Shown here: positions 2,353 to 63,475 of the stretch, in pieces
Layout: each line of letters opens with the position of its first letter
Numbering within the stretch: position 1 is the first letter of the stretch
From: Bacillota bacterium
GTDB taxonomy: Bacteria > Bacillota > Negativicutes > JBAXTZ01
Length of the DNA stretch: 64,000 nt
Assembly (NCBI GenBank): GCA_037129925.1
Contig: JBAXTZ010000004.1
Span: forward strand, 21,444-85,443
Reading direction: 5' to 3'
Position numbers and translations under genes: made by a program
The notes under the pieces: model-generated
The model's database searches: none
What the model saw: only the letters and a program-made list of their open reading frames with translations
Told to the model about the DNA's origin: nothing

Positions 2353-3516
2353 GTGAAAAAATCAATCTTGTTTTCTATGCTTATACTTGTTACTTTATTT
2401 TTATCTGCCCCGGTATCGGCTGCCATGGATTATACTGCTATCATCGAACGTGAATCACAATGGATTGCCAGCCTGCAACAACCATCCGGCGCCATCGTCA
2501 TGACCCGCAACCGGACCGTAACCTGGAACAATAATGAATACTACAAAATCGACCCCTACAACGCAAATTTGGCGGTCACCGGATTATTAACCAATCCATC
2601 GCCTGGTACAGTAGCTGTTGCCCGAAATTGGATAAACTGGTATCTGACACACTTAAACACCAATGATTACAATAAATTAAACGGCACCATATATACTTAT
2701 CTCGCTGACCCCAAAACCGGCGCGGAATATTCGACCAATACCTACGACGCTACCGACTCTTATGCCGCGACTTTTCTATCGCTGTTGAAAGTTTATGCAA
2801 AAGTCAGCAGAGATACCCAATATTTAGCCGCCAACCGCGCCACCATCGAAAGCATCGCCGGCGCGATGTTGGCAACGATGCAATCCGATGGCATGACCTA
2901 TGCCAAACCCGACAACCAAAAAAAATATCTTATGGATAATTGCGAGGTATTCTCAGGCTTAGCCGGAATTGCTTATCTCGAAAGTGAAGTGTTTAACGAC
3001 AACAAAAAGGCCCGGGGTTACAACAACCAACGGGATGCCGTGCAGAAGGCAATCGAAACAAGACTATGGAACAGCAATACGCAAAACTACGATCAAACAG
3101 CAGGAGTGCCTTCGAGCTGGCTGACTTTCTATCCGGATACCGTCAGTCAAATGTACCCGATCTGGAACGGTGTAATACCGGCAAACAGTCCGGTTGCAAA
3201 AAACCTTTACGGACAACTCTGTCTAAGTTTTCCCGGCTGGCCGTCGATTGACACCACCGATAATTTTGCCTGCGCGATGGTCAGCTATAGCGCCGCAATG
3301 ATCGGTGACCAAGTTAGTGTCGACATCTTTCTCGCGAACGTGCGCAACCGTTATATTGATCAAAATCACCCCTGGCCCTGGTACAACGCCGAAGCGGCTT
3401 TTGCAATCGGCGCCGCGGCAATGCACATCAGTCCGGCACCGCCTCCTGAAAACGAAGTTGTCCCGGCAGTTATGGTTGGTGCCGCCTTCCTGGCGTTCGG
3501 ACCGCGGCGGTGGTGA
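2353..3516 (+). CDS. Secreted hypothetical protein (possible alpha/alpha-toroid glycosidase-like fold)
   Basis: Signal peptide KKSILFSMLILVTLFLSAPVSAA (GTG start at 2353 after GAGGTG; alternative ATG at 2341). Rich in W/Y/N. I recognise no confident family. Confidence 0.5.
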   Translation: MKKSILFSMLILVTLFLSAPVSAAMDYTAIIERESQWIASLQQPSGAIVMTRNRTVTWNNNEYYKIDPYNANLAVTGLLTNPSPGTVAVARNWINWYLTHLNTNDYNKLNGTIYTYLADPKTGAEYSTNTYDATDSYAATFLSLLKVYAKVSRDTQYLAANRATIESIAGAMLATMQSDGMTYAKPDNQKKYLMDNCEVFSGLAGIAYLESEVFNDNKKARGYNNQRDAVQKAIETRLWNSNTQNYDQTAGVPSSWLTFYPDTVSQMYPIWNGVIPANSPVAKNLYGQLCLSFPGWPSIDTTDNFACAMVSYSAAMIGDQVSVDIFLANVRNRYIDQNHPWPWYNAEAAFAIGAAAMHISPAPPPENEVVPAVMVGAAFLAFGPRRW

Positions 3517-4790: not shown

Positions 4791-4829
4791 ATGTGTGTAA
4801 CCAACAAGCAGGACAATAAGGAGAATAGT

Positions 4830-6290: not shown

Positions 6291-6365
6291 TAATTTTTTG
6301 CTTCGATAACTTGGGCAGGGAGATACGTCCTCAAGGCTGCCCAAGCTGACGGTGCCTTATTCGTC

Positions 6366-7030
6366 TTGGTTGTCGGCGACTTTACCGTTTTTGGCGAGAA
6401 AAAAGAATTTGTTCAACTCTTGACTGAGATTTACGCTCAAGTTCCCAATCTACCGGTATTCTCGGTGATTGGGAACCATGACCTCCTGAACATGGAAATG
6501 CCCGCGCCGGAATCCTACGCCGACAAGGTCTCGACGCCAGCCAAACGAAAAGCGGCCTACGCAAACTATATTCGCTATGTCGGACCGCCAAATTATGTTT
6601 TGGACTCACCCGAGTTGGGATTGAAAATCGTTTCCGCCGACAGTGCGACTTATGTCATCGATACCCCAACCTTGCATTGGGTCAAAGAACAATTATCCGA
6701 ACGTCAACGGAGTGCTTTTTTCGCCACACACATGCCACCGGAATGGGAAAATCGGGAATTTCCGTGGGTACCGGTAGCGCCGGAATGGTCGATGTTATTA
6801 AGGAAACTCAGCCGGACGGAGCGTTCTTTGGCCACATTCACACTTATGACACCAAACAGATATTCACGATTCCGGCTTTTATCGCCGGGGTTGCCGGCTG
6901 CACAAACATTGATTGGGATATTGGCGATCCCGGATTCGGCTATCTGATGTGTCATGTAGTAAACGGCGTACCAAGTTATTCACGCGTTGATTTGGTGACG
7001 AAAGCAGTATTCAAGTCGGCTAATTATTAG
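6366..7030 (+). pseudogene. Metallophosphoesterase paralog, N-terminally truncated and frameshifted
   Basis: Frame 3 (6366-6947) carries the GDF...GNHD phosphoesterase motifs. Reading continues in another frame (6677-7030) with the GHIHTYD motif and C-terminus. A frameshift lies near 6780-6800. No signal peptide or motif I upstream. Confidence 0.6.
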
Positions 7031-8042
7031 AATTAAGCTTAAACTCATCGTGAAGCTGAACGTTGTTACCATACAGCCAATATTCCGCCGCAGTTATGGT
7101 ATTGTTATCGTTAATTGTAATGATCATACAGCCCGGATGATTATCAGCACTCGCGACCGATGCTTGAGGAGATAGATCGGTAATTATTTTATCTGCATCT
7201 TTTGGATTGAATGATTCAAGCGTTCCCAAATCGCCAATAACCAGCTGCGGTATACCTTCCACGACCCCGCGACAGTATAAATGTTTATGCCCTGAAATAT
7301 ACGCCACTACGTTACCGGCGTTAACCAATGTTTTCCATAACTCATCTCTCAAACTCTGCTGCTGAAACATGTTCCAGTGATGCTTACTCTCCATATCATC
7401 CGGCGTATACATCGGACTGTGCCCAAATACAAACAGATACTTTTCATTTTTTCCGCTATTGACTTCAGTTTTTATCCAATCAATGTTTAGCGTCGGCATT
7501 CTATCCTTGCCGTTAACAAACTGGTCAGCCAATATAAATTTCGCTCCATTATGCACAAAACTATATGTCAAACCTTTCTCAGCCTCTGGCCCGGTCAGCG
7601 GCATTTTATTTGCGACAATATTCATATATGCATAATAACAATTTGGGTCGCGATTATCTTTTCCGTAATCATGATTACCACGGATAACATATAATGGAAT
7701 ATTATTTTCAGCCAATATTGCTACAGTTGCCATGTAATTGGCATATTGTTTGGAATACTTTTCATACACCGGCGACGTTGACTTGGTAAGTACACCAGTA
7801 ATTAAATCGCCAGTTTCAATTACAAAATCCGGTTTTTGACTTACGATAAATCTTAGAATCGGCGGCAACGCCGGCGTCACTCCGGTCAGCGTATTTACTT
7901 TCTCACAATCATGCGTATCACTAATCAAAGCAAAACTCCAACTTTTCGCATCACATTGCGGCATTGTAGCCAAGCTAATAACAACAAGAACCACCACTGC
8001 CAAAGCGGTTTGAAAAGCTTTGTTTCTTATCATTTTTACCAT
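7020..8042 (-). CDS. Secreted calcineurin-like metallophosphoesterase
   Basis: 340 aa. Signal peptide. Motifs SDTHD, GDLI, GNHD, GHSP, GHKH. Confidence 0.8.
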   Translation of the reverse strand: MVKMIRNKAFQTALAVVVLVVISLATMPQCDAKSWSFALISDTHDCEKVNTLTGVTPALPPILRFIVSQKPDFVIETGDLITGVLTKSTSPVYEKYSKQYANYMATVAILAENNIPLYVIRGNHDYGKDNRDPNCYYAYMNIVANKMPLTGPEAEKGLTYSFVHNGAKFILADQFVNGKDRMPTLNIDWIKTEVNSGKNEKYLFVFGHSPMYTPDDMESKHHWNMFQQQSLRDELWKTLVNAGNVVAYISGHKHLYCRGVVEGIPQLVIGDLGTLESFNPKDADKIITDLSPQASVASADNHPGCMIITINDNNTITAAEYWLYGNNVQLHDEFKLNSNN

Positions 8043-8142
8043 TCCCCTTTAGTACGATTTATGCAAAATTATTAGAAACATTATAACAGTAAGTTTGAAA
8101 ATAATGAATAGTTACTATTGGCTTTTTGGACCTGTCTATTCT

Positions 8143-8252
8143 GCCAATTATCACCCTGCTTGCTCCTGTGATGTGTCACTTGGTAAACGGTGCACCGAAC
8201 TATTCACATGTCAACATTCTTTCTAAAGAAATTTTTATGTCGGGTGTGTATT
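8143..8252 (+). pseudogene. Remnant of the C-terminus of another metallophosphoesterase paralog
   Basis: Translation ...APVMCHLVNGAPNYSHVNILSKEIFMSGVY* parallels the end of the 6366-7030 pseudogene (...GYLMCHVVNGVPSYSRVDLVTKAVFKSANY*). About 70 percent nucleotide identity over roughly 85 nt. No upstream ORF. Confidence 0.5.
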
Positions 8253-8254
8253 AA

Positions 8255-9802
8255 ATGAAAATCGTCTATCTTCCTCTTGATGAACGGCCCTGTAATTACG
8301 ACTACCCGCAACAAATTGCACAAATGAGCAGTTCGATCGAACTGCTGGCGCCGCCGCGCTCACTTTTGGGGCAAAAAAAAACGCCCGCCGATCGGGCTGG
8401 CTTAAAAGTTTGGTTACTGGAAAAAGCAGCGCACTGTGATGCTGTAATAATTGCCGCCGAGATGCTGCTATATGGCGGACTGGTGCCATCGCGGCTACAC
8501 GCTCAAGTTGAATCCCAATTGCTCGATTCGGTTGATTTCATAAACCAACTCAAACTCATCAATCCGGAACTCCGAATATATGTTGGTAGCTTGATCATGC
8601 GAACACCCTCATACAGCTCCAATGACGAAGAACCGCCCTACTACGAACAATACGGTGCCCATATTTTTCGTTACGGTTGGTTGTTAGACAAGAGTGATCG
8701 CGACGGTCTGTCAGCTGCCGAACACCAAGAAATGAATGACTTAAAACAATCTCTGCCTACTCTATCCATAGATGATTATGTTCAACGTCGCCAAAAAAAC
8801 ATTGTTGCGCTTACCGCGATAATCGGACTTGTCCAGCGCGGCGTAATTGAATTTATGGTAATTCCTCAGGACGACAGCGCGCTGTATGGCTACACCGCTA
8901 TCGATCAGCGTCACATCGTCAGCGCTATTGCAGAAAAACGTTTGCAGGGCAAAATCCACATTTATCCAGGTGCCGATGAACTAGGCTGTACATTGTTGGC
9001 GCGGGCGGCGCAAGTTGGCTGCGCGATTTATCCGTTCTATGCCGCTGGAAACGCCGAGAACATCGTTCCACTATTCGAGGATCGTCCGCTTGGTGAAAGT
9101 TTGCGTGCTCACTTGCTAGCAGCAGGATGTGAAGTGGTAAGCCACAGCGGGGAGGCCGATGCCGTACTTGCGATAAACGCACCAGGAAAGTTTATGCAAC
9201 AGGCTTATGAACAGGCTAAAAAAGATGTTTCTTATTCCAGTTATCGGAACTTGCGGCTGTTTATCGACAACATCCGCCGGTATCTTGATTGCGGCTATCC
9301 GTTGGCGATCGCCGATTGCGCTTTTGCCAATGGCGGTGACACTGAATTGATTGAAATGCTTGACGAAGCCCTACTGCTCGATAAAATATCAGCTTATGCC
9401 GGCTGGAACACCAACTGCAATACTCTGGGAACGGTAATTTGCGCATTATTGTTTGCCCGCCAGTCCGGCAATATTGATACAATAATCCACTTTAAACAGC
9501 TCCGTTTGATAGAGGACTGGCTATACCAAGCTCAGGTGCGCCAATCGTTATTGGACGATATTGCCTACCAAGCAAAACACGCTCCTTGCAACAACGAGCT
9601 ACAGCTAAAACTTAAACAAATTGAGTCCGGTATGGGCTTCCACGTTTTGTTTCCGCCTGATTTCGCAAAAATAGCAGCCACGCGGTTACTGCAGCGCTGG
9701 ATTAAGGCTATTCGTCACTCCTTTCATAATAAGCAAATTTCGAAAATCACCGTTAGTCACCCTTGGCAACGCGCATTTGAAATAAAACTTGATATTGAAT
9801 AA
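8255..9802 (+). CDS. DUF4127 family protein
   Basis: 515 aa. The N-terminus MKIVYLPLDERPCNYDYP is characteristic of DUF4127. Confidence 0.75.
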   Translation: MKIVYLPLDERPCNYDYPQQIAQMSSSIELLAPPRSLLGQKKTPADRAGLKVWLLEKAAHCDAVIIAAEMLLYGGLVPSRLHAQVESQLLDSVDFINQLKLINPELRIYVGSLIMRTPSYSSNDEEPPYYEQYGAHIFRYGWLLDKSDRDGLSAAEHQEMNDLKQSLPTLSIDDYVQRRQKNIVALTAIIGLVQRGVIEFMVIPQDDSALYGYTAIDQRHIVSAIAEKRLQGKIHIYPGADELGCTLLARAAQVGCAIYPFYAAGNAENIVPLFEDRPLGESLRAHLLAAGCEVVSHSGEADAVLAINAPGKFMQQAYEQAKKDVSYSSYRNLRLFIDNIRRYLDCGYPLAIADCAFANGGDTELIEMLDEALLLDKISAYAGWNTNCNTLGTVICALLFARQSGNIDTIIHFKQLRLIEDWLYQAQVRQSLLDDIAYQAKHAPCNNELQLKLKQIESGMGFHVLFPPDFAKIAATRLLQRWIKAIRHSFHNKQISKITVSHPWQRAFEIKLDIE

Positions 9803-9892: not shown

Positions 9893-10864
9893 TCAATTAC
9901 CATTAATCAACTGCTCCCGCCGTTTACGATACTCAATTATCGGCGCATCGCCGGGAATTAATTTCTCATCCATCTTCAAACTGCTTTTTTTGGGTAATTG
10001 GGTCTGTACTACGCGTTTGTCTTGGCGTAAAATAACTATGGAAACTACTTTGCCAATCCAACTAAATATCGGTCCTAAGACTGGCAAATTAATTGTGCGT
10101 TGATAGTAGCGGATGTAAACCAGCGTATTTTCTTCATCTACCGGAACAAAAGCTGCAACTGCGCGAATGTCCTTGGAGATAATATTCTGCCAGATGTTTG
10201 GGAAATGAAATTGTAATTGGGGGAATTTCTCGTAGCCGGTTAGTTGTTCAGCTGTTTTAGGCACAGTTGTCCCATCATCGGCAACATTGTTAACATAAAA
10301 CTTAAGTAAATTGGCTGAGCTGGTTACCACCGGACCATTTACTACAGTGCGATTTCCGCGTCCAATCGTAGTGCCATGCACAAACGGCAGATGGAGCACA
10401 TCCAGTTGGTTTTCGATCGTCCGCGAATAATGTACCGCCCACGGATCAATGAATTGCGAATAACTAAAGCCGTTTTTCAAGTCCTCAAAGAAAAATGGTT
10501 GGGAATCACACTTATCCTGGTCGCCCCACCATAACCAAATAAAACCGCCTTTTTCGACTACGATATAGGATTGCACCTTAAAGCGCTCCGGCGGTGCCGA
10601 GTTTTTACCATTTGCCGGAATCAGGCGCACGGCGCCGCTTTTGTCATATTGAAAGCCGTGAAACGGACAGACAACATGATTGCCTTTAATCCAACCTTTG
10701 CCTAACGATGCTCCGCGATGACAACACTTGTCCTCAATACAACAAATGCCGCCGGCAACATCACGCCAGAACACCAATTTCACGCCTAAGCGCTTAACAG
10801 TTATCGGCTGTTTTTTGCCAATTTCATTGCTACTTAATACCGCGTACCATTGATTGTAAATCAT
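9893..10864 (-). CDS. Rieske [2Fe-2S] domain oxygenase-like protein
   Basis: 323 aa. Rieske ligands CCHRG...CPFHG near the N-terminus plus a C-terminal catalytic-like domain. Confidence 0.75.
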   Translation of the reverse strand: MIYNQWYAVLSSNEIGKKQPITVKRLGVKLVFWRDVAGGICCIEDKCCHRGASLGKGWIKGNHVVCPFHGFQYDKSGAVRLIPANGKNSAPPERFKVQSYIVVEKGGFIWLWWGDQDKCDSQPFFFEDLKNGFSYSQFIDPWAVHYSRTIENQLDVLHLPFVHGTTIGRGNRTVVNGPVVTSSANLLKFYVNNVADDGTTVPKTAEQLTGYEKFPQLQFHFPNIWQNIISKDIRAVAAFVPVDEENTLVYIRYYQRTINLPVLGPIFSWIGKVVSIVILRQDKRVVQTQLPKKSSLKMDEKLIPGDAPIIEYRKRREQLINGN

Positions 10865-10963
10865 ATTACCTCCAAAGCAATCTTCAATTGCCGCTCAATC
10901 ACTTGACAATGCCAAGCAAATTATATATCATCTCTACAATAATAAAAATAAGATTAAGGATGT

Positions 10964-11586
10964 TTATGAAGAAATTTTTGAATCCGAAAACGATTTTCAT
11001 CGCACTGATAATTTTTCTTGCAGTGTACAAAGTGCACGGCGATTATATTTCGCTACATACTCTTTTTGGTATCGGCGGCAACGCGTTAGTTTATTTCCCC
11101 TTATTCGTTTATGTGCTGGTGCTATATATCGGCTACTCACTGGCCAACAAATGGCGTCCGGCGGTAATCAGTGTCAAACGTCTGGCATTTTCACCGGCAA
11201 TGTTCCTGATTTTAACTATTCCCTCGCTAATCAGTGGAAAATATCACGACACCGCGCTTATCAGTTATATTGTTGGCATGGTGGGCATTTTTGCGCTGTC
11301 GATGTTTGTTCACAGTAAAATCGACATTAAAGCTGATAAGATCAAAAAACTTATTGCCATCCCCGCTGATCCGATAATAATAATCGCGACACTATTTGTT
11401 GTCGGTAACGGCGTTGCAAATGGTTATCTTAATGCAATCAATTCGCCACTTATGAAATCCGGCTGGTTGGTGCCAATTATGGCTTTCGTGTCAGCCGCCA
11501 TCGCCGGTCACCGAATTGCAAAAGCGCTCAGCTTTTATCTCAAATACCGTCAAGCGCCGCAGACTGATTTAGAAAAAACAAAATAG
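10964..11586 (+). CDS. Hypothetical polytopic membrane protein
   Basis: ATG at 10964 after AAGGA. Five to six predicted TM helices. No recognisable family. Confidence 0.5.
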
Positions 11587-11591
11587 CTCTA

Positions 11592-11638
11592 ATAAAACAG
11601 CCGCTCTCCGCAAAATGCCGAGGCGGCTGTTTTTTTAT
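11592..11638. terminator. Bidirectional intrinsic terminator
   Basis: Stem cagccgctc / gaggcggctg with an A-run before and TTTTTTT after. Sits between convergent genes. Confidence 0.6.
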
Positions 11639-12198
11639 TAGCGCTTACATTTTGCGCCGTCACTCCATGCTTTGCCGATTGCCGCACCACAAGAATAATA
11701 TTTCAAATCAGGCATTGTAAAAATCAGCTGATCGATTTTCGCCAAATCCGGCTTGCCGGCAGTCATACAGTCTTCTTGGCAAAATGCATTAATTACTTCG
11801 CCAATGAATAGTGTATTGGAAGGCAACTCAATCGTCTGGGTCAACTTGCAAGTTAAACTGTACGGCGCATTGGCAATTAGCGGCGCATTTTTCAAATCAC
11901 CGTAAACTGTTTCAAACAACCCGCCTTTATCGACTTTCCGACCTGAATTCATCCCGCAATAGTCGGCAATATCTTTTTGCAAAACATTAACGCCATTGAT
12001 ACTAAACTCTCCGGTTTCGCGAATGATTTCATTGGTCAGATGTCCTTTGTTGATTGCAATCGCAAACAACGGTGGCTGATTATTCACCCGGGTTACCCAG
12101 CCAACCGCCATAAAATTTACTTTGTCGTCCATTTTCGTGCCGACCAAAACCAATGGCATTGGGTATACAAACGCGTTTTTACCGATTTCCTTTTGCAT
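11638..12198 (-). CDS. Flavin reductase-like FMN-binding split-barrel protein
   Basis: 186 aa. Flavin_Reduct-like N-terminus (PMPLVLVGT...FMAVGW). Confidence 0.75.
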   Translation of the reverse strand: MQKEIGKNAFVYPMPLVLVGTKMDDKVNFMAVGWVTRVNNQPPLFAIAINKGHLTNEIIRETGEFSINGVNVLQKDIADYCGMNSGRKVDKGGLFETVYGDLKNAPLIANAPYSLTCKLTQTIELPSNTLFIGEVINAFCQEDCMTAGKPDLAKIDQLIFTMPDLKYYSCGAAIGKAWSDGAKCKR

Positions 12199-12199
12199 C

Positions 12200-12895
12200 T
12201 TAATTATCTCCTATCTTGAATGGATTATAACGCACACCATAATCATATGTATCCAATTGCTCTTTTTTCTTCAACCAAGCAATTACACGAAGAGTGAGCG
12301 GCGAGATCACTATTTCATAACCCGATTTGAAGACCCATTGCACCAGTACATAGGCCTGCAAATCGACTAGTGGAATCGTTCCGCCAAATGCAATACATCC
12401 GAATATTATCGAATCAAATAGCTGCCCAACGATTGTTGAAAGCACCACTCTCAACCACAAATAACGCCCCTGGCACGCAACTTTCAATTTTGACAACACA
12501 AACGAGTTCAAAAATTCGCCAACCAAATAGGCGCACAACGACGCCACAAAAATCCTTGGCATAAAGCCAAGAATTCGAGCATAAGCTTCCTGCCCGTCCC
12601 AAAACGGCGCTGGCGGCAGAATTTGCGCCACCATCAGAGTTAGCACCAAAAACAGATTACCGGCAAAGCCCAGCCAAATTACCATCCGGCTCCGGCGGAA
12701 ACCATAAACCTCGGTTAACACGTCGCCAAAAATATAACTGAGCGGAAATACTATCGTCCCGGCATCCATAAATACGCCAAAAAAATCAAATATCTTTACC
12801 GACGCAATATTGGCAGTAAGCAAGCAAATAATAAAACTTGCCGAAAACAGCAAAAATCGGCGCGAATACTGAGCGTCAACTTTGTTTTCTGCCAT
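12200..12895 (-). CDS. Queuosine-precursor transporter, YhhQ/DUF165 (VUT) family
   Basis: 231 aa with 6 TM helices. Conserved YhhQ-type motifs (ANIASVKIF, FPLSYIFGDVLTEVYG). Confidence 0.8.
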   Translation of the reverse strand: MAENKVDAQYSRRFLLFSASFIICLLTANIASVKIFDFFGVFMDAGTIVFPLSYIFGDVLTEVYGFRRSRMVIWLGFAGNLFLVLTLMVAQILPPAPFWDGQEAYARILGFMPRIFVASLCAYLVGEFLNSFVLSKLKVACQGRYLWLRVVLSTIVGQLFDSIIFGCIAFGGTIPLVDLQAYVLVQWVFKSGYEIVISPLTLRVIAWLKKKEQLDTYDYGVRYNPFKIGDN

Positions 12896-26240: not shown

Positions 26241-29200
26241 TCATACCTTCCCGCCCACGCCTTTAAACTTCTCAACAAAAGCGGCGTTTTTTTGGAAGAC
26301 ACGTTGTTTTTTTGTTAAGTATTGCGGATTGAGCGGACTCATTTTGGGCAGAATTGCATTTAACTCAGTGCCATTTTCACTTGCATACTCTCGTTTTAAT
26401 GACGCTGTGATATAACGCTTAGCGGCACCAATATTCAGGGTTTCAGTGATAATTAATTCTTCTGCTTCCCGTTGTTGCTCGGTTTGTGCAAAGGTGAAGA
26501 ACGCATCAATAATGCTGGCTTTGTCGAGAATGTCGTCCAGGTTGGTTTGGTTAATAAACTCAACCAGCAAATTTTCTTTGGCACGGTTGCCAATGCTGGC
26601 GCGGATTAAACGGCGTACTTCTTCGACCAATGCCGATTTATCTTTAAGCTTTTTATTGTTTTCAAAAATCAATTCCAATATGTAATCCAGATTAATCTCC
26701 TGCGATTTAAGCAAATCCACCTCAAAAACCACATCATCCCAATCAATAGTTGAGGAGTCTTTTGCATTAGCGGATTGCTCACGGCGAAGCCAGTCGCGAA
26801 TATCGTTATAGGTTGAACGATAATCTTGAATAGTACGCTCGGCGGGTATCGCAATCGTTTGCATGACACTTAAGTCGTCCGAGCTTAGATAGTGCTTAGC
26901 TTTAAACTCCTCCACGGCAGCAGGGTCGGTTACATCTAAACTTTGTAAGGCTTTTAACCCGGCAAATTCATCGTAGTTTTGCAGCACATTCTCGACCCGC
27001 AAATATTCACCAAATAATTTCGCGAAGTCCTTTTTATCTATTTCTTTAACAATTTCGGAAGGCAAGGGGAATCGTTGTTGTAATTCTGCTATCACAGCCA
27101 AATAGCCACGCCGTGCTTCGCCCGTTGCCACATCGGTAAAACCTTCCATGTATTCTTTGTAACTTTTTTCCAACACCACGTTTTTGGTGTTCTTGTCACC
27201 AAACAAAGTAATTGCGTCAATTGTGGCTTGTTCTAAATCGCGGAAGGAGACAATATTGCCAAAAGTCTTGGTAGCATCATAAATACGGTTAGTACGTGAA
27301 TAGGCTTGCATCAAGCCGTGGTAACGCAGGTTTTTATCCACGAACAAGGTATTCAAAGTTGGCGCATCAAAACCTGTTAAAAACATACCCACGACAATAA
27401 GCAAATCAACTTCCTGGTTTTTTACCCGCTTGGCGAGGTCTCGGTAATAGTTTTGAAACCCATTGCTATCAACGCCGTAATTGGTTTTGAACAACGCGTT
27501 ATAGTCAGCAATTGCCGCGCTTAAAAACTCTTTAGCGCTGCTATCCATTGCCGTAATTTCAAAGCTTTCATCAACAATATCTCCTACAGCCTCCTGTTCT
27601 TCATTGGCTGCAAAAGAGAAGATGGTGGCAATGTTAAGCGGCTTGATACTGTCTTTTTGTAAGCGCTTTAGTGATTCATAGTAAAGCTTGGCGGCATCTA
27701 CGCTACTCACGGCAAACATGGCATTAAAGCCTTTTCCATTGGCTTGCAGTCGATGCGTTTTTTGCTTGAAGTTATTCAATATATACTGCGAAATTTCTCG
27801 AAGGCGCTCAGGATGCAGTAGCGCTTGTTTGTTTTCTGCCGCTGTTAGTTTGCTCTCGTCTTGTTCGGTTTCAATCGCCTTAAATTGCGGTCGCACATCA
27901 TTGTAGTCCACTTTGAACTTCAATACTTTTTCATCGCGAATGGCATCGGTAATCACATAGGAATGTAATTCACGCCCAAAAACGCTGGCAGTGGTCTCGG
28001 CACCCAAGGCGTTTAGTGGTAATATCGGCGTACCGGTAAAACCAAATTGGTAGAACTGCTTGAACTTTTTCTTTAAATTTGCTTGTGCTTCACCAAACTG
28101 CGAACGATGTGCCTCGTCAAAAATAAATACCACTTGCTTGTTGTAGATGGGCAAGTCGCCTTCACTTTTCATTAAGTTATTCAGTTTTTGGATGGTGGTA
28201 ACAATGATTTTATTGTCATCTTTTTCAAGATTACGCTTTAGCCCGGCGGTACTGTCTGAGCCATTGACACTATCCGGCGAAAAGCGTTGATACTCTTTCA
28301 TGGTTTGAAAGTCGAGATCTTTGCGGTCGACCACAAAAAAGACCTTATCAATAAAATCGAGTTCGGTAGCCAAGCGTGCTGCTTTGAAGCTGGTTAAGGT
28401 TTTGCCCGATCCTGTGGTATGCCAGATAAAGCCACCACTTTCTGTGGCGCTCCAGTTTTTTGCCTGATAAGCGCTCTTTATTTTCCACAAAATGCGCTCG
28501 GTCGCGGCAATTTGGTATGGGCGCATTACCAATAATGTATCACTAACATCAAATACCGAATAATGCAGCAGCACATTCAACAAAGTATTTTTTTGAAAAA
28601 AGGTTGCAGTGAAATCTTTTAAGTCTTTAATCAACGTATTATCTGCTCTTGCCCAATTCATGGTGAAATCAAAACTGTTTTTATCGCGTTTGGTGGTATT
28701 GGCAAAATAGCGGCTATCTGTCCCGTTTGAAATTACGAAAAGCTGTAAATATTTAAACAGTGAATTGCCTTTATTGAAACTTTCTTTGCTATAGCGATGT
28801 ACTTGGTTGAAGGCTTCGCGAATGGCCACACCGCGTTTTTTCAGCTCGACTTGCACTAAGGGCAAACCATTGACCAAAATGGTGACATCGTACCGATTGG
28901 CCTGCGTGCCTTTTTGTTCAAACTGTTTAATCACCTGCACTTTATTGCGGGCAAGGTTTTTCTTGTCCAACAGGTAGATATTCTGGATATGCCCATCATC
29001 AAACACAAAATCGTGGATATAGTCGTCATGAACTTTACGCGTTTTGTCAATGCTATTATCGCTGGGCTTATCTAAATATTCCTCAACAAAGCGCAACCAT
29101 TCCCCCTCGAAGAACTGCACATTATTGAGGGTTTGTAGCTGCACGCGAATATTAGCCAGCAATTTCTCGGACGTGTTTAAGTCGCTAAGATATTCATAGC

Positions 29201-29360
29201 CTTGGCTTACTAAGTCAGCGATAAACTCGCGCTCTAAAGCGCCTTCGCTCTGGTAGGGTTCATTGACCTGCCAACACTTGGTGTATTTATCCAGCACGAT
29301 GAAGTTATTCGATTCGGCAATGGTTTTATAGTCGCTCATTTGGTTATTCTCCTCCAACAT
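26241..29360 (-). CDS. hsdR: Type I restriction enzyme R subunit
   Basis: 1039 aa. SF2 helicase motifs (TGSGKT, DEAH-like FDEAHRSQ) and the type I HsdR N-terminal nuclease region. Confidence 0.95.
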
Positions 29361-29381
29361 GCAACTAGAGTTCCAATTCTC

Positions 29382-55800: not shown

Positions 55801-55945
55801 TAGTCCTCCAAAAATTTAATATATTCTCTGCCTTGATAATTGGATATTGCTATTCTAACATGCTATAATTTCCATATAAATTATGTTATGCAACATGTTC
55901 ATAAGCATAATCATTTTTCTGTTGCTAGATTACGAGGAGATTGTG

Positions 55946-56497: not shown

Positions 56498-56582
56498 CAT
56501 AAATTGCTATTTTATTATTGAATAAACCCAAAATAAAATCTATAATACGCCTGCGTTAATTTTTCAAAATTTAGGAGGGCAG

Positions 56583-57215
56583 ATGAGTTCAACGTTAAAG
56601 CAAATTGCTGAGGCTATGCTCGATGGTCTTACAAAAAAAACCAAGGAACTTACCGAAAAGGCCGTTGCCGAAGGCATACCGGCAAAAATCATTTTAAACG
56701 ACGGGTTGCTTGCCGGAATGCAAGAAGTCGGCATACTATTTAAGGATGGCGAGTTGTTCGTTCCCGAAGTGCTAATTGCCGCAAAAGCAATGAATATGGG
56801 GATGGAAGTGCTAGCTCCACTGTTAAGCTCCGGTGATGTCAACCAACGCGGCGTGGCATTATTAGCTACCGTCCAAGGCGATTTGCACGATGTCGGCGTG
56901 AAATTGGTGGGTATGATGTTAAAAGGCAATGGTTACGAAATAATTAATTTAGGCATTGATATTCCCACAGAAACTATCGTCGCCGCAGTAAAAGAACACC
57001 GACCGAAGATATTGGGAATGTCGGCAATGCTCACTACAACGATGGTCGCAACCCGGGACGTTATCGCCGCTTTGAAAGCCGAGGGTCTATATGATGACCT
57101 GGTGGTTATGGTTGGCGGCGCGCCGGTAACGGAACAATTCGCCAAAAGCGTAGGCGCGTTATATGCTTCCGATGCATCAACTGCTGTTGATGTGGCTAAC
57201 GCGGCACTGGAATAA
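56583..57215 (+). CDS. Cobalamin (corrinoid)-binding protein of methyltransferase systems
   Basis: B12-binding N-terminal helical cap plus Rossmann domain with DxHxxG motif (GDLHDVG). 210 aa. Confidence 0.85.
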   Translation: MSSTLKQIAEAMLDGLTKKTKELTEKAVAEGIPAKIILNDGLLAGMQEVGILFKDGELFVPEVLIAAKAMNMGMEVLAPLLSSGDVNQRGVALLATVQGDLHDVGVKLVGMMLKGNGYEIINLGIDIPTETIVAAVKEHRPKILGMSAMLTTTMVATRDVIAALKAEGLYDDLVVMVGGAPVTEQFAKSVGALYASDASTAVDVANAALE

Positions 57216-57247
57216 AGCTGAATTATGAAAGCTGAAATCTGAAATTT

Positions 57248-58159
57248 ATGCGAAAGAAGATATTTCTGGTCACCGGTTTTCTCGGTAGCGGCAAAACTAC
57301 TTTCTTGCAAAATCTGTTAGCGCAAATCGCCCCCCGCCACAAAATCGGTGTCATCGTAAATGAATTTGGGCGCACCGGCATCGACGGCTCGCTAATTGCC
57401 AGAAACGGTTTGGAATTGCATGAACTGTCTGGTGGTTCAATTTTTTGCGCTTGTTTAAAGGGAAATTTCATCGCGGCGCTAGATGTTTTTTTGGATTTGC
57501 CAATTGAATACTTGTTTATTGAGAGCAGCGGATTGGCGAACCCCGCCGGTTTTCATAACATTTCCAGTTTTATTGACAAGCCTGATTGCATTCAATCAAT
57601 TGCGACGCTCTGCGTTGTAGACGGCAAATATTTTCTTGACCAACTGGATATGTTTAATTCAGTGGAAACGCAAATACGCGCTGCCGACTTAGTGTTGGTT
57701 AACAAAATTGATTTGACGAGCCGCGAACTGTTGACAGAAATCGACAGCGCCATCAGCAACCTTAACGCTGCTGCTAAAATCATCCGTACTGCTTTCGGTT
57801 CGCTTGAGTTGACCGAACTCGAATTGGTCGGTTGCCAGCAAGCTGTATTACTAATTAACAACCGTACGGATTTTCGCCCATTTACGCATACATTAATTAC
57901 TGATACCGCGCTTTCGTTTGAGCAGTTGCGTAATTTTCTCGTGGCAATAACGCCGTTGGCGTTGAGAGTTAAAGGCTTCTTACTCACTGATTCCGGTCTG
58001 GTAAAAATTGATGTGGTCGGAAAAACCATTAACATCGTCTCGCACCCGGCTCCGGTTACTGCAAAGTTGGAAATCATCGCCAATCAAGCGCTGCCGGTCA
58101 ACCGCGAGCTAATAACGGCATGGCAGAAACATTGTCCCGGCGAAATCAGTCTCGTCTAG
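57248..58159 (+). CDS. CobW/COG0523 family G3E GTPase (putative metallochaperone)
   Basis: P-loop GFLGSGKTT, CxCC-like region and a C-terminal CobW_C domain. Confidence 0.85.
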   Translation: MRKKIFLVTGFLGSGKTTFLQNLLAQIAPRHKIGVIVNEFGRTGIDGSLIARNGLELHELSGGSIFCACLKGNFIAALDVFLDLPIEYLFIESSGLANPAGFHNISSFIDKPDCIQSIATLCVVDGKYFLDQLDMFNSVETQIRAADLVLVNKIDLTSRELLTEIDSAISNLNAAAKIIRTAFGSLELTELELVGCQQAVLLINNRTDFRPFTHTLITDTALSFEQLRNFLVAITPLALRVKGFLLTDSGLVKIDVVGKTINIVSHPAPVTAKLEIIANQALPVNRELITAWQKHCPGEISLV

Positions 58160-58184
58160 CGCGGCGTAACAATCAACCATCCTT

Positions 58185-59555
58185 ATGATAAATAAACTGG
58201 AGGCTCTCATGACTGGCACCCAAAAACGTTTTCTCTGGATGATCATTTTCACTTCAGCCATCGCCGGCGTACTGTACGGCTACGATCTCGGCATCATTTC
58301 CGCCGCATTTCTCGTCTTGCCCAAGCACATACCGATGAACGAAACCATGATGGGCTTTCTTGGTTCGGCGGTGCTGTTTGGCGGCGCGTTCACTATTCTG
58401 ATTGCTGGGCCACTAGCCGATGTTGTTGGTCGCAAGAAAATGATCGTAGCCGCCAACATCATTTTTCTTGGTGGCGTGGTGTTGCTGGGCTTTGCCCAAG
58501 ACTACTCCCACATCATCGTCGGGCGCTTGGTTCAGGGCGTAGGTGTTGGAATCATCACTATCGTAGTTCCTCTATATCTTGCCGAAGTTCTGCCTAGCAA
58601 TTATCGTGGTCGGGGCATCTTGGCGTTTCAATTGCTGTTAGGCTGCGGCATATTTTTCGCCAATCTTATCGGTTTATATTTTACGCCATCAGAAGATTGG
58701 CGGAGCATGTTCCTCTCCAGCGGCATACCCAGTCTGCTACTGCTGTTGCTATGTTTCGGGCTGCCGGAATCACCGCGCTGGCTGGTGGCAAAAGGCAAAA
58801 AAGTGCGTGCTTTGAACATTCTTCGAAAAATCAACCCGCCGAAGCTTGCGCAAGCCGAAGTTCTCGATATTGAATCCAACCTGGAACTGACCAAAGGTGA
58901 GAGCAATTGGCGGGCGCTTTTCGATAAGCGCTATGCTTGGGCGTTGTTTTTGGTTTTTTCGAACGCCATTCTTATTCAATTGACCGGCATCAATTCGATA
59001 CTCCAATATAGTGGCATTATCTTAAAAGAAGCCGGTTTGGCTTCTAACGAGGCGGCGATGCTGGGTAGCACCGTTTTGACCAGTGTTATTATCGTTGTGC
59101 CGTTGTTGGTTATGTTTATTATTGATAGCTTTGGCAGGAAGAAAATCCTTTGTATCGGTACCGCCGGTGTATTTGTCACACTTGCCGCCGCGGCAACTGT
59201 ATTCTTAACCATGGCGCCTTCGCAAAATCGCGGCATCGCGATGATTGTCTGCCTAACAGCCTTTTTGATCGCCTACAGTTTTGGACCAAGCGGCGTTATT
59301 TGGTTAATGCTTTCGGAGTTGCTCCCCAACAAGATTCGCAGCGTTGGCATGAGCGCGGCATTGTTTGCCAACTCGATGATTTCATCGATTTTTGCCATCG
59401 TGTTTTTGCAACTATCGACTTTTATCGCCTATTCCGGCGTATTCTATATGTGTTCAATCTTCGGACTTATATACTTCTACATTGCTTACAGATATGTCCC
59501 GGAAACCAAAGGAAAATCTCTTGAACAAATTGAACGCGAGTTAGTTGGTCGTTAG
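58185..59555 (+). CDS. MFS sugar-porter-family transporter
   Basis: 12 TM helices. Sugar-porter signatures (GRKK, PESPRW, PETKG). Confidence 0.8.
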   Translation: MINKLEALMTGTQKRFLWMIIFTSAIAGVLYGYDLGIISAAFLVLPKHIPMNETMMGFLGSAVLFGGAFTILIAGPLADVVGRKKMIVAANIIFLGGVVLLGFAQDYSHIIVGRLVQGVGVGIITIVVPLYLAEVLPSNYRGRGILAFQLLLGCGIFFANLIGLYFTPSEDWRSMFLSSGIPSLLLLLLCFGLPESPRWLVAKGKKVRALNILRKINPPKLAQAEVLDIESNLELTKGESNWRALFDKRYAWALFLVFSNAILIQLTGINSILQYSGIILKEAGLASNEAAMLGSTVLTSVIIVVPLLVMFIIDSFGRKKILCIGTAGVFVTLAAAATVFLTMAPSQNRGIAMIVCLTAFLIAYSFGPSGVIWLMLSELLPNKIRSVGMSAALFANSMISSIFAIVFLQLSTFIAYSGVFYMCSIFGLIYFYIAYRYVPETKGKSLEQIERELVGR

Positions 59556-59647
59556 CGGCCGGCGGCTAGCGGCTGGATCTGGGGAGTTCTACCAGCAACT
59601 GACAGCCAGCGGCCAACAACAGCAAACTAAAACGAGGAGAGAAAAAA

Positions 59648-60640
59648 ATGACACCACGAGAACGCTATGAAGCGATGTTAACCGGACAATCCTGTGACAT
59701 AGTGCCACGCACACCGATATTGATGCGATTGGCAGCCGAACAAATCAATGCAGAATACATCGAATTTACACGCAACTACAAAGTAATGGTCGAGGCGCAG
59801 ATTTTTTGCGCTGAAAAATTTGGCATCGACCAGCTCAGTGTCATCTCCGGTAGCTACGGCGAAACACAGGGCTATGGTGGCGAGATCGGTTACCGTCCAC
59901 TGGGACCGTATGTTAGCCGACTGCCACTTGGCGCGACAACTGATCTCGGTACCCTGCGCAATCCCGACCCGTTTACGACGCCGCTACTGATTGACCGGTT
60001 AAACGCTATCCGCGAATATCGCCGTTTGACCGGCGAAAAATATTCCGTTTGCGGCTGGATTGAAGGACCGGCGGCGCAATCGGCCGACATGCGCGGCATT
60101 GAGCAGTTTTTAATGGATTTGATTGAGGAGCCGGAGTTTTGCGCGGACTGCATGGATCTGGTAACCGACAAAGCGATTATTTTCGCCAAGGCTCAACACG
60201 AAGCCGGCGCTGACACCATTGGTGTGGGCGATGCCATTGCCAGTCAAGTATCTTTGCGGACATACAAAAAGCTCATATTCCCCCGCGAAAAACGATTGTT
60301 TGACGCAATAAAAGCGCTGGGTTGCTATACCAAGTTGCACATTTGCGGCAATATTACTCATCTATTGCCGGCAATAGCCGAGCTGGATGTTGATATTATT
60401 GATGTTGACCACATGGTTGACATCAATAAAGTTCGTGATATTTTAGGCTCGCGGGTGGCAATAACCGGCAATATTGATCCGGTGTTGGTCATGACCGCTA
60501 ATCCAGAATACATCGCCAAAACCATGCGCGACACTTATGCCGCTATAGCCGCGCCGTTCTTGCTAAACGCCGGTTGCGAAATACCGCCGGGAACACCAGA
60601 TGTGAATTTACTGGCGCTTTGTCAACGAATTGATGCTTGA
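59648..60640 (+). CDS. Uroporphyrinogen-decarboxylase-family methyltransferase (MtaA/CmuA-like, zinc-dependent)
   Basis: 330 aa URO-D fold. Putative Zn ligands H-I-C (HICG) and a downstream Cys (GCEIPPGTP), as in MtaA. Confidence 0.8.
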   Translation: MTPRERYEAMLTGQSCDIVPRTPILMRLAAEQINAEYIEFTRNYKVMVEAQIFCAEKFGIDQLSVISGSYGETQGYGGEIGYRPLGPYVSRLPLGATTDLGTLRNPDPFTTPLLIDRLNAIREYRRLTGEKYSVCGWIEGPAAQSADMRGIEQFLMDLIEEPEFCADCMDLVTDKAIIFAKAQHEAGADTIGVGDAIASQVSLRTYKKLIFPREKRLFDAIKALGCYTKLHICGNITHLLPAIAELDVDIIDVDHMVDINKVRDILGSRVAITGNIDPVLVMTANPEYIAKTMRDTYAAIAAPFLLNAGCEIPPGTPDVNLLALCQRIDA

Positions 60641-60662: not shown

Positions 60663-61340
60663 ATGAAAACATTACTGACGCTATGCCTCGCCTTGGTATT
60701 AATGTCGGCACCAGCCGTTGCCGCGCCGTTAAATGATTTTCACAATAACAGCTTTCAAATTGACTTCGGCTTTAGCCCGACAGTTGCTCAGACAGCAACG
60801 AGCACGTCCGGCGCCGTAACCCTGCCCAACGTTTCCGAATATAGCGGTAATTTGACTTATGCTGTTGCGGATTTCATTGCGCTCCGCCTAGGCGCGACAG
60901 CGCTTACCAATTCCATGGTACAATGGAACAACACTGATACAGGAGTTCTCGGCTTAACGCAAGCCAACCTGCAAGTCGTTGTCAATCCCAGCGAATATTG
61001 TCAACCATTTTTCGGGGTACAATATGCGGTGTATAACTTGCCGGATCAAACTGGCGGAAATTGGAAAAATTTAGATTATAAGCAAGCCGGAATTTGCGGC
61101 GGTGTCCAATTAACCTTGCCGCTTGCCGACTTGTTTTTGTTAAATGCCAGCGGCATGTATGGTACCTATTACAACTCTGCTTATGCCGGGGTCGCTTTAC
61201 GCTTGTTCGGACAACTCGACGTTGATGCCGGTTATGCTTATGAATACTACAACACCGCACAGCTAAACAATCTGCCGGTTGGCGCGCCCAACTCGATAAC
61301 TGCTCAAGGAATGCGGTTGGGAGTTAGTCTCAGACTATAA
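60663..61340 (+). CDS. Secreted beta-rich protein, possible outer-membrane beta-barrel
   Basis: ATG at 60663 after AGGGAGA. Signal peptide MKTLLTLCLALVLMSAPAVAAP. Alternating hydrophobic pattern. Confidence 0.5.
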   Translation: MKTLLTLCLALVLMSAPAVAAPLNDFHNNSFQIDFGFSPTVAQTATSTSGAVTLPNVSEYSGNLTYAVADFIALRLGATALTNSMVQWNNTDTGVLGLTQANLQVVVNPSEYCQPFFGVQYAVYNLPDQTGGNWKNLDYKQAGICGGVQLTLPLADLFLLNASGMYGTYYNSAYAGVALRLFGQLDVDAGYAYEYYNTAQLNNLPVGAPNSITAQGMRLGVSLRL

Positions 61341-61350
61341 AACTTTTTTT

Positions 61351-61378
61351 AGCGCTCCACTTTGGAGCGCTTTTTTGT
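61351..61378 (+). terminator. Intrinsic terminator
   Basis: Stem agcgctcca / tggagcgct with loop ctt and TTTTTT after. Confidence 0.7.
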
Positions 61379-61450
61379 TTAGTATTTGTTGAGAAAAATA
61401 TGCTATAATAATTTTAACGTTCACCAATTAGAAAGAAATTTGGAGGAGAA

Positions 61451-62401: not shown

Positions 62402-62539
62402 TAAAAAACATTTAAAAATTTTTGTAAATGCAGGATATTACAGCAATCGTAGCGAATATAGTAAATTTGAAGAAGATTTGTAAAGAAAAAGCTTTTCTCG
62501 ATCATAAAGATAAATATATTTCGAAGGGGATTGTCTATT

Positions 62540-63475
62540 TTGAAAAACACAACTGTTTTTGATCTGTACCAACTGTTCCACCAGAACAACACTCCGCGCA
62601 AATATCCGCAACGATTGCATTTTCGCGGTGTAGACGGCTACGATGTTTACAATTCGTCCGCACCGTTTCATTCTCAGGGAAAAGAACTTATCGCCGGCCG
62701 GGTTGAGAAACGCGACAGTGAACACTCCCGGGTAATGTTTTTTGAAAAAGTCAATCACGAGTTTATTTTACTGGCCGACGCTCCAGTATTTACATTACAG
62801 GATCCTTGCATTACCCATATTGGCGGCGAGTTGGTTTTGAGCGGGGTTGAGATTTTCCCGCATCCGGACAATCCAGCAGCGCTCTGGTGGCGCACCGCTT
62901 TTTATCGCGGCAAAGATGTATATTCACTGAAGCGGTTTACTGCCGGTCCAAACGGCATGAAAGATATCCGGTTGTGCGAACTTAAAGACGGAAAAATTGC
63001 CGTATTCACCCGCCCGCGTCACCCGATGGGCGAGATGGGTTCGGATGGTGGTCGCGGCGTTATCGGCTATGTTGAAATCGCCAATCTTAGCGAACTTATC
63101 CCGGAAAATCTAAATAAAGCCGAGCATCTGGATCAAATACAGGAACACAGCTGGCTGGGCGCAAATGAAGTATTTTGCCTGAGCGAAAATTTACTGGGAG
63201 TTCTTTGCCACGTGGCGATGTTTGATTTCAACAGCAGCCGTCACTATTTTGCGGCAGTATTTACCTTTGACCGAACGACACGTCAGCCCGGCAAGTTAGA
63301 AATAATCGCCGAGCGAAACGACTATTTACCGGGACCGGCAAAAATTCCCGACCTACACGACGTTATTTTTCCGGCATGTTTGCGATTTAATGAAGACCGC
63401 GCCTGGTTGATTTGCGGCGTGAGCGATTGCGAAATGCAGTCGTTGGAAATTGTTAATCCCTTTAAAAATTTATAG
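62540..63475 (+). CDS. DUF1861-like beta-propeller protein (GH130-like fold)
   Basis: About 310 aa. TTG start at 62540 with AAGGGGA 9 nt upstream (alternative TTG at 62531). Immediately upstream of a sugar ABC permease. Confidence 0.55.
   Translation: MKNTTVFDLYQLFHQNNTPRKYPQRLHFRGVDGYDVYNSSAPFHSQGKELIAGRVEKRDSEHSRVMFFEKVNHEFILLADAPVFTLQDPCITHIGGELVLSGVEIFPHPDNPAALWWRTAFYRGKDVYSLKRFTAGPNGMKDIRLCELKDGKIAVFTRPRHPMGEMGSDGGRGVIGYVEIANLSELIPENLNKAEHLDQIQEHSWLGANEVFCLSENLLGVLCHVAMFDFNSSRHYFAAVFTFDRTTRQPGKLEIIAERNDYLPGPAKIPDLHDVIFPACLRFNEDRAWLICGVSDCEMQSLEIVNPFKNL

Follow-up and report, generated by a model that had tools for sequence, protein, structure and literature searches.

A conserved Negativicutes operon joins a corrinoid protein to an MtaA-like zinc methyltransferase, a sugar-porter-type transporter and a G3E GTPase, and may encode a self-contained methyl-transfer system

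How is a corrinoid protein supplied with methyl groups when the genes around it include no recognisable substrate-activating partner? This question is raised by a cluster of genes in a 64,000-nucleotide stretch of Negativicutes DNA (contig JBAXTZ010000004.1 of assembly GCA_037129925.1; hereafter the window), in which a reading made from the letters alone (the sequence-only reading) had described a corrinoid protein, a CobW/COG0523 GTPase, an MFS transporter and a zinc methyltransferase of the UroD family. We found four consecutive open reading frames (ORFs) on the + strand at exactly the coordinates first noted, 56583-60640, and all four have significant matches to the expected domains, which bears out that inventory. 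The reading that we favour, tentatively and as quite possibly correct, is that these genes belong to a self-contained, substrate-specific, two-component corrinoid methyl-transfer operon in which the UroD-type enzyme would load the corrinoid protein from an imported methylated compound. We favour it because the operon combines a carrier and a dedicated importer with just one methyltransferase, and because corrinoid proteins are normally co-encoded with the substrate:corrinoid methyltransferase (MT1) that loads them.

The UroD-type enzyme is a predicted zinc-binding protein and the likely cognate methyltransferase of the corrinoid protein. The HxC...C zinc motif that the sequence-only reading had described withstands alignment: His231-x-Cys233...Cys310 is invariant in a 31-sequence alignment (31/31) and in 88/88 family members, and H231, C233 and C310 align with the LHICGN and GC columns of Methanosarcina mazei MtaA (4ay7). 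An AlphaFold2 (AF2) model made on the family alignment (pLDDT 95.2, pTM 0.93) has MtaA 4ay7 as its best Foldseek match (TM-score 0.90, root-mean-square deviation 2.1 Å, 23% identity), ahead of all HemE structures. The enzyme scores below the cut-offs of the curated MtaA-type models, with 149.2 bits against 235.4 for TIGR01463 (mtaA_cmuA), 132.4 against 244 for NF004889, and about 102-104 bits against cut-offs of 400-600 for the MtaA/MtbA equivalog models, which places it in a separate, uncurated clade of the superfamily. HemE was considered as an identity for this protein and rejected (TIGR01464, 75.8 against a cut-off of 302.95). Besides the zinc ligands, two further cysteines, C54 and C325, are conserved in 87/88 family members and might bind a second metal or be joined in a disulfide.

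The corrinoid protein has the expected architecture of an N-terminal helical cap (PF02607, B12-binding_2, residues 5-77, E 1.5e-20) followed by a Rossmann B12-binding domain (PF02310, B12-binding, residues 91-187, E 2e-23), and its DxHxxG motif, which contains the lower histidine ligand, is present as DLHDVG within QGDLHDVG. Its scores lie below the curated cut-offs (NF047996, MtgC_2, 206.6 against 370 bits; TIGR02370, 178.2 against 215.3). It is thus under the cut-offs of all substrate-specific models, and therefore no substrate class can be assigned from it.

A hint about the substrate comes from the transporter, which is presumably the importer of the methylated compound. The MFS protein passes the sugar-porter model TIGR00879 (283.7 against a cut-off of 237.8 bits) and carries the signature motifs PESPRW and PETKGK; its best solved relative is the glucose transporter GlcP (4lds, E 1.2e-62), followed by XylE. 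When its pocket is compared with those of XylE and GlcP, the Gln of transmembrane helix (TM) 5, a Gln and the Asn of TM7, and the Trp of TM10 are kept, and there are two changes: Ile replaces the first Gln of the TM7 QQ pair, and Gln occupies the position of XylE Y298. The aromatic-acid symporter model TIGR00895 is not reached (133.6 against 418.55).

These properties of the enzyme and the transporter bear on a suggestion to which the sequence-only reading had leaned, that the locus serves O-demethylation of methoxylated aromatics, and Negativicutes do include acetogens that use methoxy-aromatics. Under this suggestion the UroD-type protein would be a first methyltransferase (MT I) like OdmB, VdmB or MtvB, and aromatic O-demethylases with an MT I from the UroD superfamily do exist (PMC10418091, PMC8630106). 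Within the superfamily, however, His-Cys-Cys zinc marks S- and Se-methyltransferases, whereas the O-demethylases of the OdmB/VdmB type swap one or both Cys for Glu/Asp or for non-ligands (PMC10418091). In the window enzyme both zinc cysteines are kept and invariant, so that by this rule it is not an O-demethylase of that type. Moreover, the closest fold and the closest NCBIfam models are those of coenzyme M methyltransferases, the transporter is a sugar porter rather than an aromatic-acid symporter, and there is no linked second methyltransferase (MT II) or activating enzyme, unlike in typical odm, vdm and mtv clusters. The ligands and the transporter together weaken the lean towards methoxylated aromatics, and we regard this explanation as very improbable. 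The zinc-ligand rule nevertheless does not prove that the substrate contains sulfur; the zinc site on which MtaB activates methanol is Glu-Cys-Cys.

The fourth protein, the GTPase, had been placed in COG0523 and proposed as a metallochaperone for the methyltransferase or the corrinoid protein; service to the zinc enzyme has gained support, but membership of COG0523 by its motif has not. COG0523 is defined by a conserved CXCC motif (PMC2770081). In 13 aligned sequences (the window protein and 12 relatives) the Walker A motif GFLGSGKTT and C67-x-C69 are invariant, and the motif reads F-C67-A-C69-L, with Leu or Ile after C69 in all 13, so the canonical CXCC is absent. One more invariant cysteine, C122, is present in these corrinoid-linked G3E GTPases with C-x-C-(L/I). 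The C-terminal domain is divergent, matching CobW_C (PF07683) weakly (E 0.014, 15.7 bits against a cut-off of 22), as it does in the homologues. From 63% within the clade of the window, GTPase identity falls to at most 39% outside it, mostly in anaerobic Firmicutes. Three of the four out-of-clade homologues that we looked up (36-38% identity), those of Sporomusa carbonis, Eubacterium callanderi and Halothermothrix orenii, directly adjoin a URO-D gene of about 450 codons, the exception being Clostridium carboxidivorans; in H. orenii the order is corrinoid protein, RACo, Met_synt_B12, UroD, GTPase. To the adjacency at these three homologues (loci L010, 6280-8939; L092, 4593-6921; L094, 1091-6918) metagenome locus L035 adds a further case. 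The recurrence of this pairing supports the notion that the GTPase serves the zinc methyltransferase, and suggests a conserved GTPase-UroD maturation pair. The URO-D proteins of about 450 residues beside out-of-clade GTPases carry a weak thioredoxin-like domain (L010, L092 and L094).

If the four genes were a chance assembly or a remnant, their order would not be expected to persist. We found the order O-methyltransferase (on the - strand), TPR, corrinoid protein, GTPase, MFS, UroD, 225-aa ORF kept in L001, the closest species-level genome (a Negativicutes metagenome-assembled genome, MAG), and in L008, that is, in at least three Negativicutes MAG lineages including that of the window (identities in Table 1). 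That the order is kept while the GTPase has diverged to 48% identity argues for a functional unit under selection.

The missing partners are missing over a wide span. Pfam scans of essentially all window ORFs of at least 180 aa found no MtaB, MTTB, MtmB/MtbB, Pterin_bind, MtrH or RACo/RamA, and tblastn of the 64 kb with MtaB, RACo, homocysteine S-methyltransferase and MttB from related loci gave no match, in line with the sequence-only reading, which had reported MtrH-like and RamA-like genes as lacking from the window. Other methyltransferase-partner and activase genes are likewise absent from the 6.6 kb past the window end and from up to 10 kb on either side in the relatives, and the operon, like the whole window, has one URO-D gene only. 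The upstream flank encodes an LtaS-like sulfatase-fold protein, an adenosine deaminase and a peptidoglycan (cell-wall) amidase, and the downstream flank an LPP20 lipoprotein, DUF1861 and ABC sugar-transporter genes. The DUF1861 gene (62531-63475) is followed past the window end (L005, 5324-13424) by two ABC permease genes, two solute-binding protein genes and an unassigned ORF of 692 aa; this set resembles a carbohydrate uptake locus and is not kept beside the module in L008.

These data speak to the possibility, raised beforehand as what would refute a distinct module, that the cluster is a truncated or decaying piece of a standard mta, mtt or mtb operon. Its resemblance to such operons is superficial, a matter of gene set only. 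We conclude that it is not an mta/mtt fragment because no MtaB, MttB, pterin-binding, MtrH, RamA or RACo gene lies in the 64 kb or in the flanks of the relatives; in addition, the unit is closed by a promoter-like site and a strong terminator, its flanks are unrelated both here and in the two relatives, all of its ORFs are intact, and its order is kept in three lineages down to 48% identity. The explanation is refuted, and we give it next to no credence.

The extent of the unit did need revision, for the four genes stand but the unit is larger. At the 3′ end it reaches a secreted ORF of 225 aa (60663-61340), which begins 22 nt past the UroD stop, and the terminator beyond it; at the 5′ end it probably takes in a TPR gene as its first gene. 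Gaps within the unit are 22-92 nt. In a scan of 55-64 kb, the strongest terminator-like site is the one at 61351-61371, with the sequence AGCGCTCCACTTTGGAGCGCT then TTTTTGTTTA, and no strong terminator-like site lies between the five genes from the corrinoid gene through the 225-aa ORF. The corrinoid-gene ATG at 56583 is preceded by an AGGAGG ribosome-binding site and the TPR gene has a GAGGAG ribosome-binding site before ATG 55946; besides the promoter-like site listed in Table 1, a second one lies 5′ of the TPR gene (55841-55869). No Rfam family matched above its gathering score anywhere in the window, and there is therefore no cobalamin riboswitch.

Table 1 Features of the corrinoid methyl-transfer locus in window coordinates, with protein identities to the two relatives that keep the gene order
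Feature	Position	Strand	Basis or remark	Identity, L001	Identity, L008
SAM (S-adenosylmethionine)-dependent O-methyltransferase (PF01596), 217 aa	55147..55800	-	Pfam Methyltransf_3, E 1.3e-61; divergently transcribed; syntenic in both relatives	88%	67%
Secreted TPR protein	ORF opens 55883, likely ATG 55946, ends 56497	+	TPR_16 and TPR_2 matches; 15-nt gap to corrinoid gene in L008	81%	58%
Sigma-70-like consensus TTGAAT-17-TATAAT	56518..56546	+	10/12 matches; consensus match only		
Corrinoid methyl-carrier protein, 210 aa, base-off/His-on type	56583..57215	+	B12-binding_2 and B12-binding	90%	76%
G3E-family (CobW/COG0523-like) GTPase, 303 aa	57248..58159	+	Pfam cobW, E 1.8e-36	75%	48%
Sugar-porter-family MFS transporter, 456 aa (448 aa from downstream start)	58185..59555	+	Sugar_tr, E 6.7e-87	93%	77%
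URO-D-superfamily MtaA-like zinc methyltransferase, 330 aa	59648..60640	+	URO-D, E 5.3e-55	87%	78%
Secreted 225-aa protein, family unassigned, last gene of unit	60663..61340	+	No Pfam match; same position in L008		49%
Intrinsic terminator, 9-bp stem with 6 G-C pairs, then T-run	61351..61381	+	Sequence scan		

Both of the added proteins appear to belong to the cell envelope. The N-terminus of the TPR protein is hydrophobic (MKKLIFLFVALLVLCLSS). The 225-aa protein has a signal-peptide-like N-terminus (AVA-AP), low charge, an abundance of G, N, T and Y residues and beta patterns that are amphipathic, and a Pfam search up to E 1 gave no match. It is possibly a small outer-membrane beta-barrel, which would be plausible in the diderm Negativicutes; since its single-sequence AF2 model (pLDDT 30.4) is unusable, this suggestion draws on composition only. 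The divergent O-methyltransferase is probably a conserved neighbour outside the module, and its size and family would fit a housekeeping enzyme acting on tRNA or a small molecule. We had considered it as a part of the module since a homologue lies about 4 kb from the UroD gene of Pontiella, and rejected it; we take that adjacency to be a coincidence, because the homologue is only 32% identical and stands beside a tRNA pseudouridine synthase gene.

Much of the argument about the role of the UroD-type enzyme turns on its wider family. A homologue search with the enzyme returned 3400 sequences at E <= 0.001, most of them from glycan-degrading phyla. Identity drops from 78-90% inside the clade to 50-56% in a very large family outside it, whose hosts include Planctomycetota, Verrucomicrobiota, Pontiella (Kiritimatiellota), Lentisphaerota, Latescibacterota, KSB3 and Bacteroidota. 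In a neighbour-joining tree the window clade is sister to this wider family (mean identity 52% between the two and 63% within the wider family), and it is set apart by 12 fixed differences, among them D68G, R113L and E144Q, at positions that are conserved otherwise.

We surveyed the genomic context of out-of-clade members in 80 metagenome loci, Pontiella and a Latescibacterota MAG, many of the contigs being short. No dominant neighbour emerged from the 80 metagenome loci. The 138 nearest ORFs of 65 non-redundant loci included Gfo/Idh/MocA (8), URO-D (7), S-methyl_trans (4), MFS (3), and MtaB, RACo, sulfatase, GH116 and ThuA (2 each); the carbohydrate-related neighbours may be there simply because these phyla are rich in such genes. 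A minority of members, however, is embedded in clear corrinoid systems, which marks the family as a corrinoid-linked methyltransferase family; these members have 50-56% identity to the window enzyme and their loci are scattered over the tree. Specifically, L035 (3623-8996) has the order RACo, MtaC, MtaB, small G3E GTPase, UroD, and L083 (4526-8990) has RACo and then MtaC, MtaB, UroD. In L025 (3253-8828), MtaB and a corrinoid protein are divergent from a homocysteine S-methyltransferase-UroD pair; in L015 (4145-7201) a UroD paralogue, a homocysteine methyltransferase and UroD are consecutive, with a corrinoid protein and RACo nearby; and L018 (382-4133) has RACo, homocysteine methyltransferase, UroD. 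The position of the family is ambiguous, being that of MtaA (MT2, the enzyme that unloads the carrier) beside MtaB and that of MT1 beside a MetH-type homocysteine domain. The sets in L015, L018 and L025 may be split-MetH-like systems that feed unusual methyl donors into methionine synthesis (cf. PMC9324843).

Two details of these loci deserve mention in their own right. The L035 operon stands beside a gene for a 764-aa fusion of fatty-acid-desaturase, Rieske and NAD-binding domains. The L015 paralogue (4145-5287), a 380-aa URO-D protein, lacks HxC...C (it reads VDCDG ... PDHRVP) and may be a different, O-type methyltransferase that shares the corrinoid protein.

The ambiguity of the family gives rise to the main rival of the reading that we favour, namely that the UroD-type enzyme is an MT2, which would pass the methyl group from the methyl-Co(III) carrier to a thiol or other acceptor, with an MT1 of the MttB, MtaB or another type encoded elsewhere. 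Its fold and zinc site match those of MtaA, an MT2, and in the RACo-MtaC-MtaB-G3E-UroD operons of the L035 and L083 kind its relatives occupy the MtaA position. The nearest out-of-clade relatives of the corrinoid protein (58-65% identity, in a Sporomusaceae MAG and a Victivallales MAG) adjoin MttB-family MT1 genes, in L011 together with a UroD protein that is also His-Cys-Cys (HxC...C). Most UroD members, moreover, have no link to corrinoid genes, which is often the case for shared MT2 enzymes. Yet a transporter and a carrier without an MT1 would be odd packaging for a generic MT2; corrinoid proteins are usually co-encoded with MT1, and no MT1 candidate is found in the 64 kb or in the flanks of the relatives. 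Bacteria, furthermore, are generally without coenzyme M, which would leave the acceptor undefined as well. On balance we consider that the enzyme is unlikely to be an MT2, while taking this as the most serious of the alternatives.

Several observations weigh against a self-contained operon with the UroD-type enzyme as MT1. In L035 and L083 the family holds the place of MtaA beside an MtaB-type MT1, and the enzyme could be an MT2 here too. The orphan distribution of the family, with about 90% of out-of-clade members having no corrinoid gene in the DNA surveyed, many contigs of which are short, fits a shared MT2 better than a dedicated MT1; this point is offset by the shortness of the contigs and by the standing of the window clade as a sister group with its 12 fixed differences. 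The His-Cys-Cys site speaks for sulfur or selenium as the ligand (PMC10418091), but the transporter looks built for sugar; the two are compatible only with an unusual substrate, a methylthio-sugar for example, or with a ligand rule that allows exceptions. Finally, with no linked reductive activase, the system would depend on genes elsewhere in the genome.

If the operon is nonetheless self-contained, its proteins could work as follows. A methylated small molecule would cross the envelope, possibly by way of the secreted 225-aa protein, and enter through the sugar-porter-type MFS transporter. The MtaA-like enzyme would hold the heteroatom of the substrate on its His-Cys-Cys zinc site and use its methyl group to methylate Co(I) in the corrinoid protein of the operon, a role of the MT1 type as in MtpA and MtsA. 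Unloading of the resulting methyl-Co(III) protein would fall to the same enzyme or to another methyltransferase whose gene lies elsewhere, and the G3E GTPase would mature the UroD-type enzyme, most likely by supplying its zinc. The direction of methyl flow, the MT1 role and the role of the GTPase are what we infer from gene content and its comparison with other systems. From the transporter family we likewise infer a substrate that may be sugar-like, and from the zinc site one with a thioether or ether methyl group.

A bolder extension, which we put forward as unlikely though worth stating, is that the window clade, and perhaps the wider orphan MtaA-like family, carries out an oxygen-independent, corrinoid-dependent demethylation of methylated sugars or cyclitols. 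The adjacency to a sugar porter, which we count in favour of the two-component reading, recurs independently in two of the surveyed loci: in L013 the UroD gene is followed directly by a Sugar_tr gene, with a GH5 glycosidase and a ROK regulator near, and L043 (2988-14570), a polysaccharide utilisation locus of the Bacteroidota type, has the order sulfatase, sugar-porter MFS, sulfatase, UroD, SusC, SusD. By a rough estimate that assumes few such transporters per genome, three independent sugar-porter adjacencies in about 65 lineages exceed chance. As speculative candidates for the substrate we name the O-methyl sugars of algal and plant glycans and methylthio-sugars, 5-methylthioribose among them; with one of the latter, an importer of the sugar type and a zinc site of the thiol type would make sense together. 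In our literature searches no paper connected corrinoid methyltransferases with methylated sugars, with fucoidan degraders or with methylthioribose, and the only sugar demethylases that came up were oxygen-dependent P450 enzymes.

The substrate classes known for corrinoid systems are methanol, methylamines, quaternary amines, methyl sulfides and aryl methyl ethers. Were the extension true, corrinoid methyl transfer would gain a further substrate class, and the operon would show how anaerobes handle methylated sugars without oxygen. Aerobic marine bacteria demethylate sugars with oxygen-dependent cytochrome P450 enzymes (PMC6292453), of which the enzyme would then be the anaerobic counterpart. 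Should sugar demethylation not be its function, the operon would be one more uncharacterised methyltransferase cluster of known architecture. It offers in addition a compact handle on a large uncurated MtaA-like family, most members of which have no obvious partner gene, and a simple test system for the role of corrinoid-linked G3E GTPases, a question since the COG0523 survey of 2009.

Elsewhere in the window we noted three further gene groups. At 9893-12895 on the - strand, a Rieske and VanA_C oxygenase-type protein, a flavin reductase and a Vut_1 vitamin-uptake transporter are encoded together, an oxygen-dependent demethylase-like gene being unexpected in a presumably anaerobic Negativicutes genome. 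At 26241-33399 (- strand) lie the type I restriction-modification genes for HsdR, HsdS and HsdM, with a YhcG/DUF1016 PD-(D/E)XK nuclease gene between hsdS and hsdM. At 3510-9802 (+ strand), genes for DUF4434, an extracellular solute-binding protein with DUF3502, and DUF4127 are clustered with one for a calcineurin-like phosphoesterase.

We finally compared the operon with known corrinoid systems, which bear directly on the apparent lack of a substrate-activating partner. A corrinoid protein is normally co-encoded with its substrate-specific methyltransferase, and the shared downstream enzyme can be unlinked, as for MtqA in Eubacterium limosum (PMC8604678). The mtpCAP operon of Methanosarcina acetivorans (MA4164-4166) brings together genes for a corrinoid protein, an MFS transporter and a methyltransferase of the MtaA family (PMC7374477). 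Purified MtpA has methylmercaptopropionate:cob(I)alamin methyltransferase activity but lacks that of an MT2, the unloading enzyme being elsewhere (10.1101/548461). Methanosarcina barkeri has a two-component system made up of the MtaA homologue MtsA and the corrinoid protein MtsB, with MtsA carrying out both half-reactions (10.1101/548461). The absence of a partner, which the sequence-only reading had implied to be an anomaly, is therefore none, because MtsA and MtpA themselves act as substrate:corrinoid methyltransferases (10.1101/548461; PMC7374477).

The MtsA precedent also suggests that the window enzyme could be bifunctional, transferring the methyl group of an imported methyl-thioether in a ping-pong fashion, by both half-reactions, to a cellular thiol via the corrinoid protein. 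MtsA/MtsB are documented with exactly this two-component make-up (10.1101/548461), His-Cys-Cys zinc suits thioether and thiolate ligands (PMC10418091), and the operon has a single methyltransferase gene. However, MtpA, which had been predicted to be bifunctional on the same grounds, proved to be an MT1 only (10.1101/548461), no candidate thiol acceptor is evident, and the transporter is of the sugar type. We therefore judge a bifunctional enzyme to be a rather improbable explanation.

Two bacterial and archaeal precedents share parts rather than the whole of the layout. Type 1 mlp clusters, found mostly in anaerobic Firmicutes and proposed to act in methyl-sulfur or methyl-selenium metabolism, combine bacterial MtaA-like His-Cys-Cys URO-D proteins with a corrinoid protein and have no tetrahydrofolate methyltransferase (Kountz and Balskus 2023, PMC10418091). 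Such clusters need at least Mlp2 and Mlp3 and a Ram/RACE activase, whereas the window has one URO-D gene and no activase; identity as a Type 1 mlp cluster was rejected on these grounds, neither Pfam nor tblastn having found RACo or Ram in the window. With MtaABC the operon shares the MtaA fold, the HxC...C motif and the MtaC architecture of the corrinoid protein, and the UroD-type enzyme has relatives in true MtaC-MtaB operons (L035 and L083); the differences are that there is no MtaB in the window and that the enzyme is 23% identical to MtaA. As regards the GTPase, COG0523 subfamily 13 co-localises with mtaA, mtaB, mtaC and ramM in archaea and clostridia (Haas et al. 2009, PMC2770081). The link between COG0523 and corrinoid methyltransferases is thus not new, having been in the literature since 2009 (PMC2770081); the window GTPase is alike in being a G3E GTPase linked to corrinoid methyltransferase genes and differs in that it and its relatives have C-x-C-(L/I) where the subfamily has CXCC.

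The closest known architecture, as judged by gene content, is mtpCAP, with which the operon shares a corrinoid protein, an MtaA-family enzyme and an MFS transporter without an MT1 of the MtaB or MttB type. It differs from mtpCAP in its bacterial (Negativicutes) rather than archaeal host, its sugar-porter transporter, its extra G3E GTPase and its envelope proteins, and with a bacterial host coenzyme M is not expected as the final acceptor, unlike in mtpCAP. MtsA/MtsB resemble it in the pairing of an MtaA homologue with a corrinoid protein as a two-component system and in thiol/thioether chemistry on zinc; they differ in that MtsA is bifunctional and ends on coenzyme M, that no transporter or GTPase is linked, and that the substrates are small volatile or acidic thioethers. 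What is new here relative to mtpCAP and MtsAB is the bacterial host, the sugar-porter importer, the G3E GTPase with its non-canonical motif and the origin of the enzyme in a large uncurated clade.

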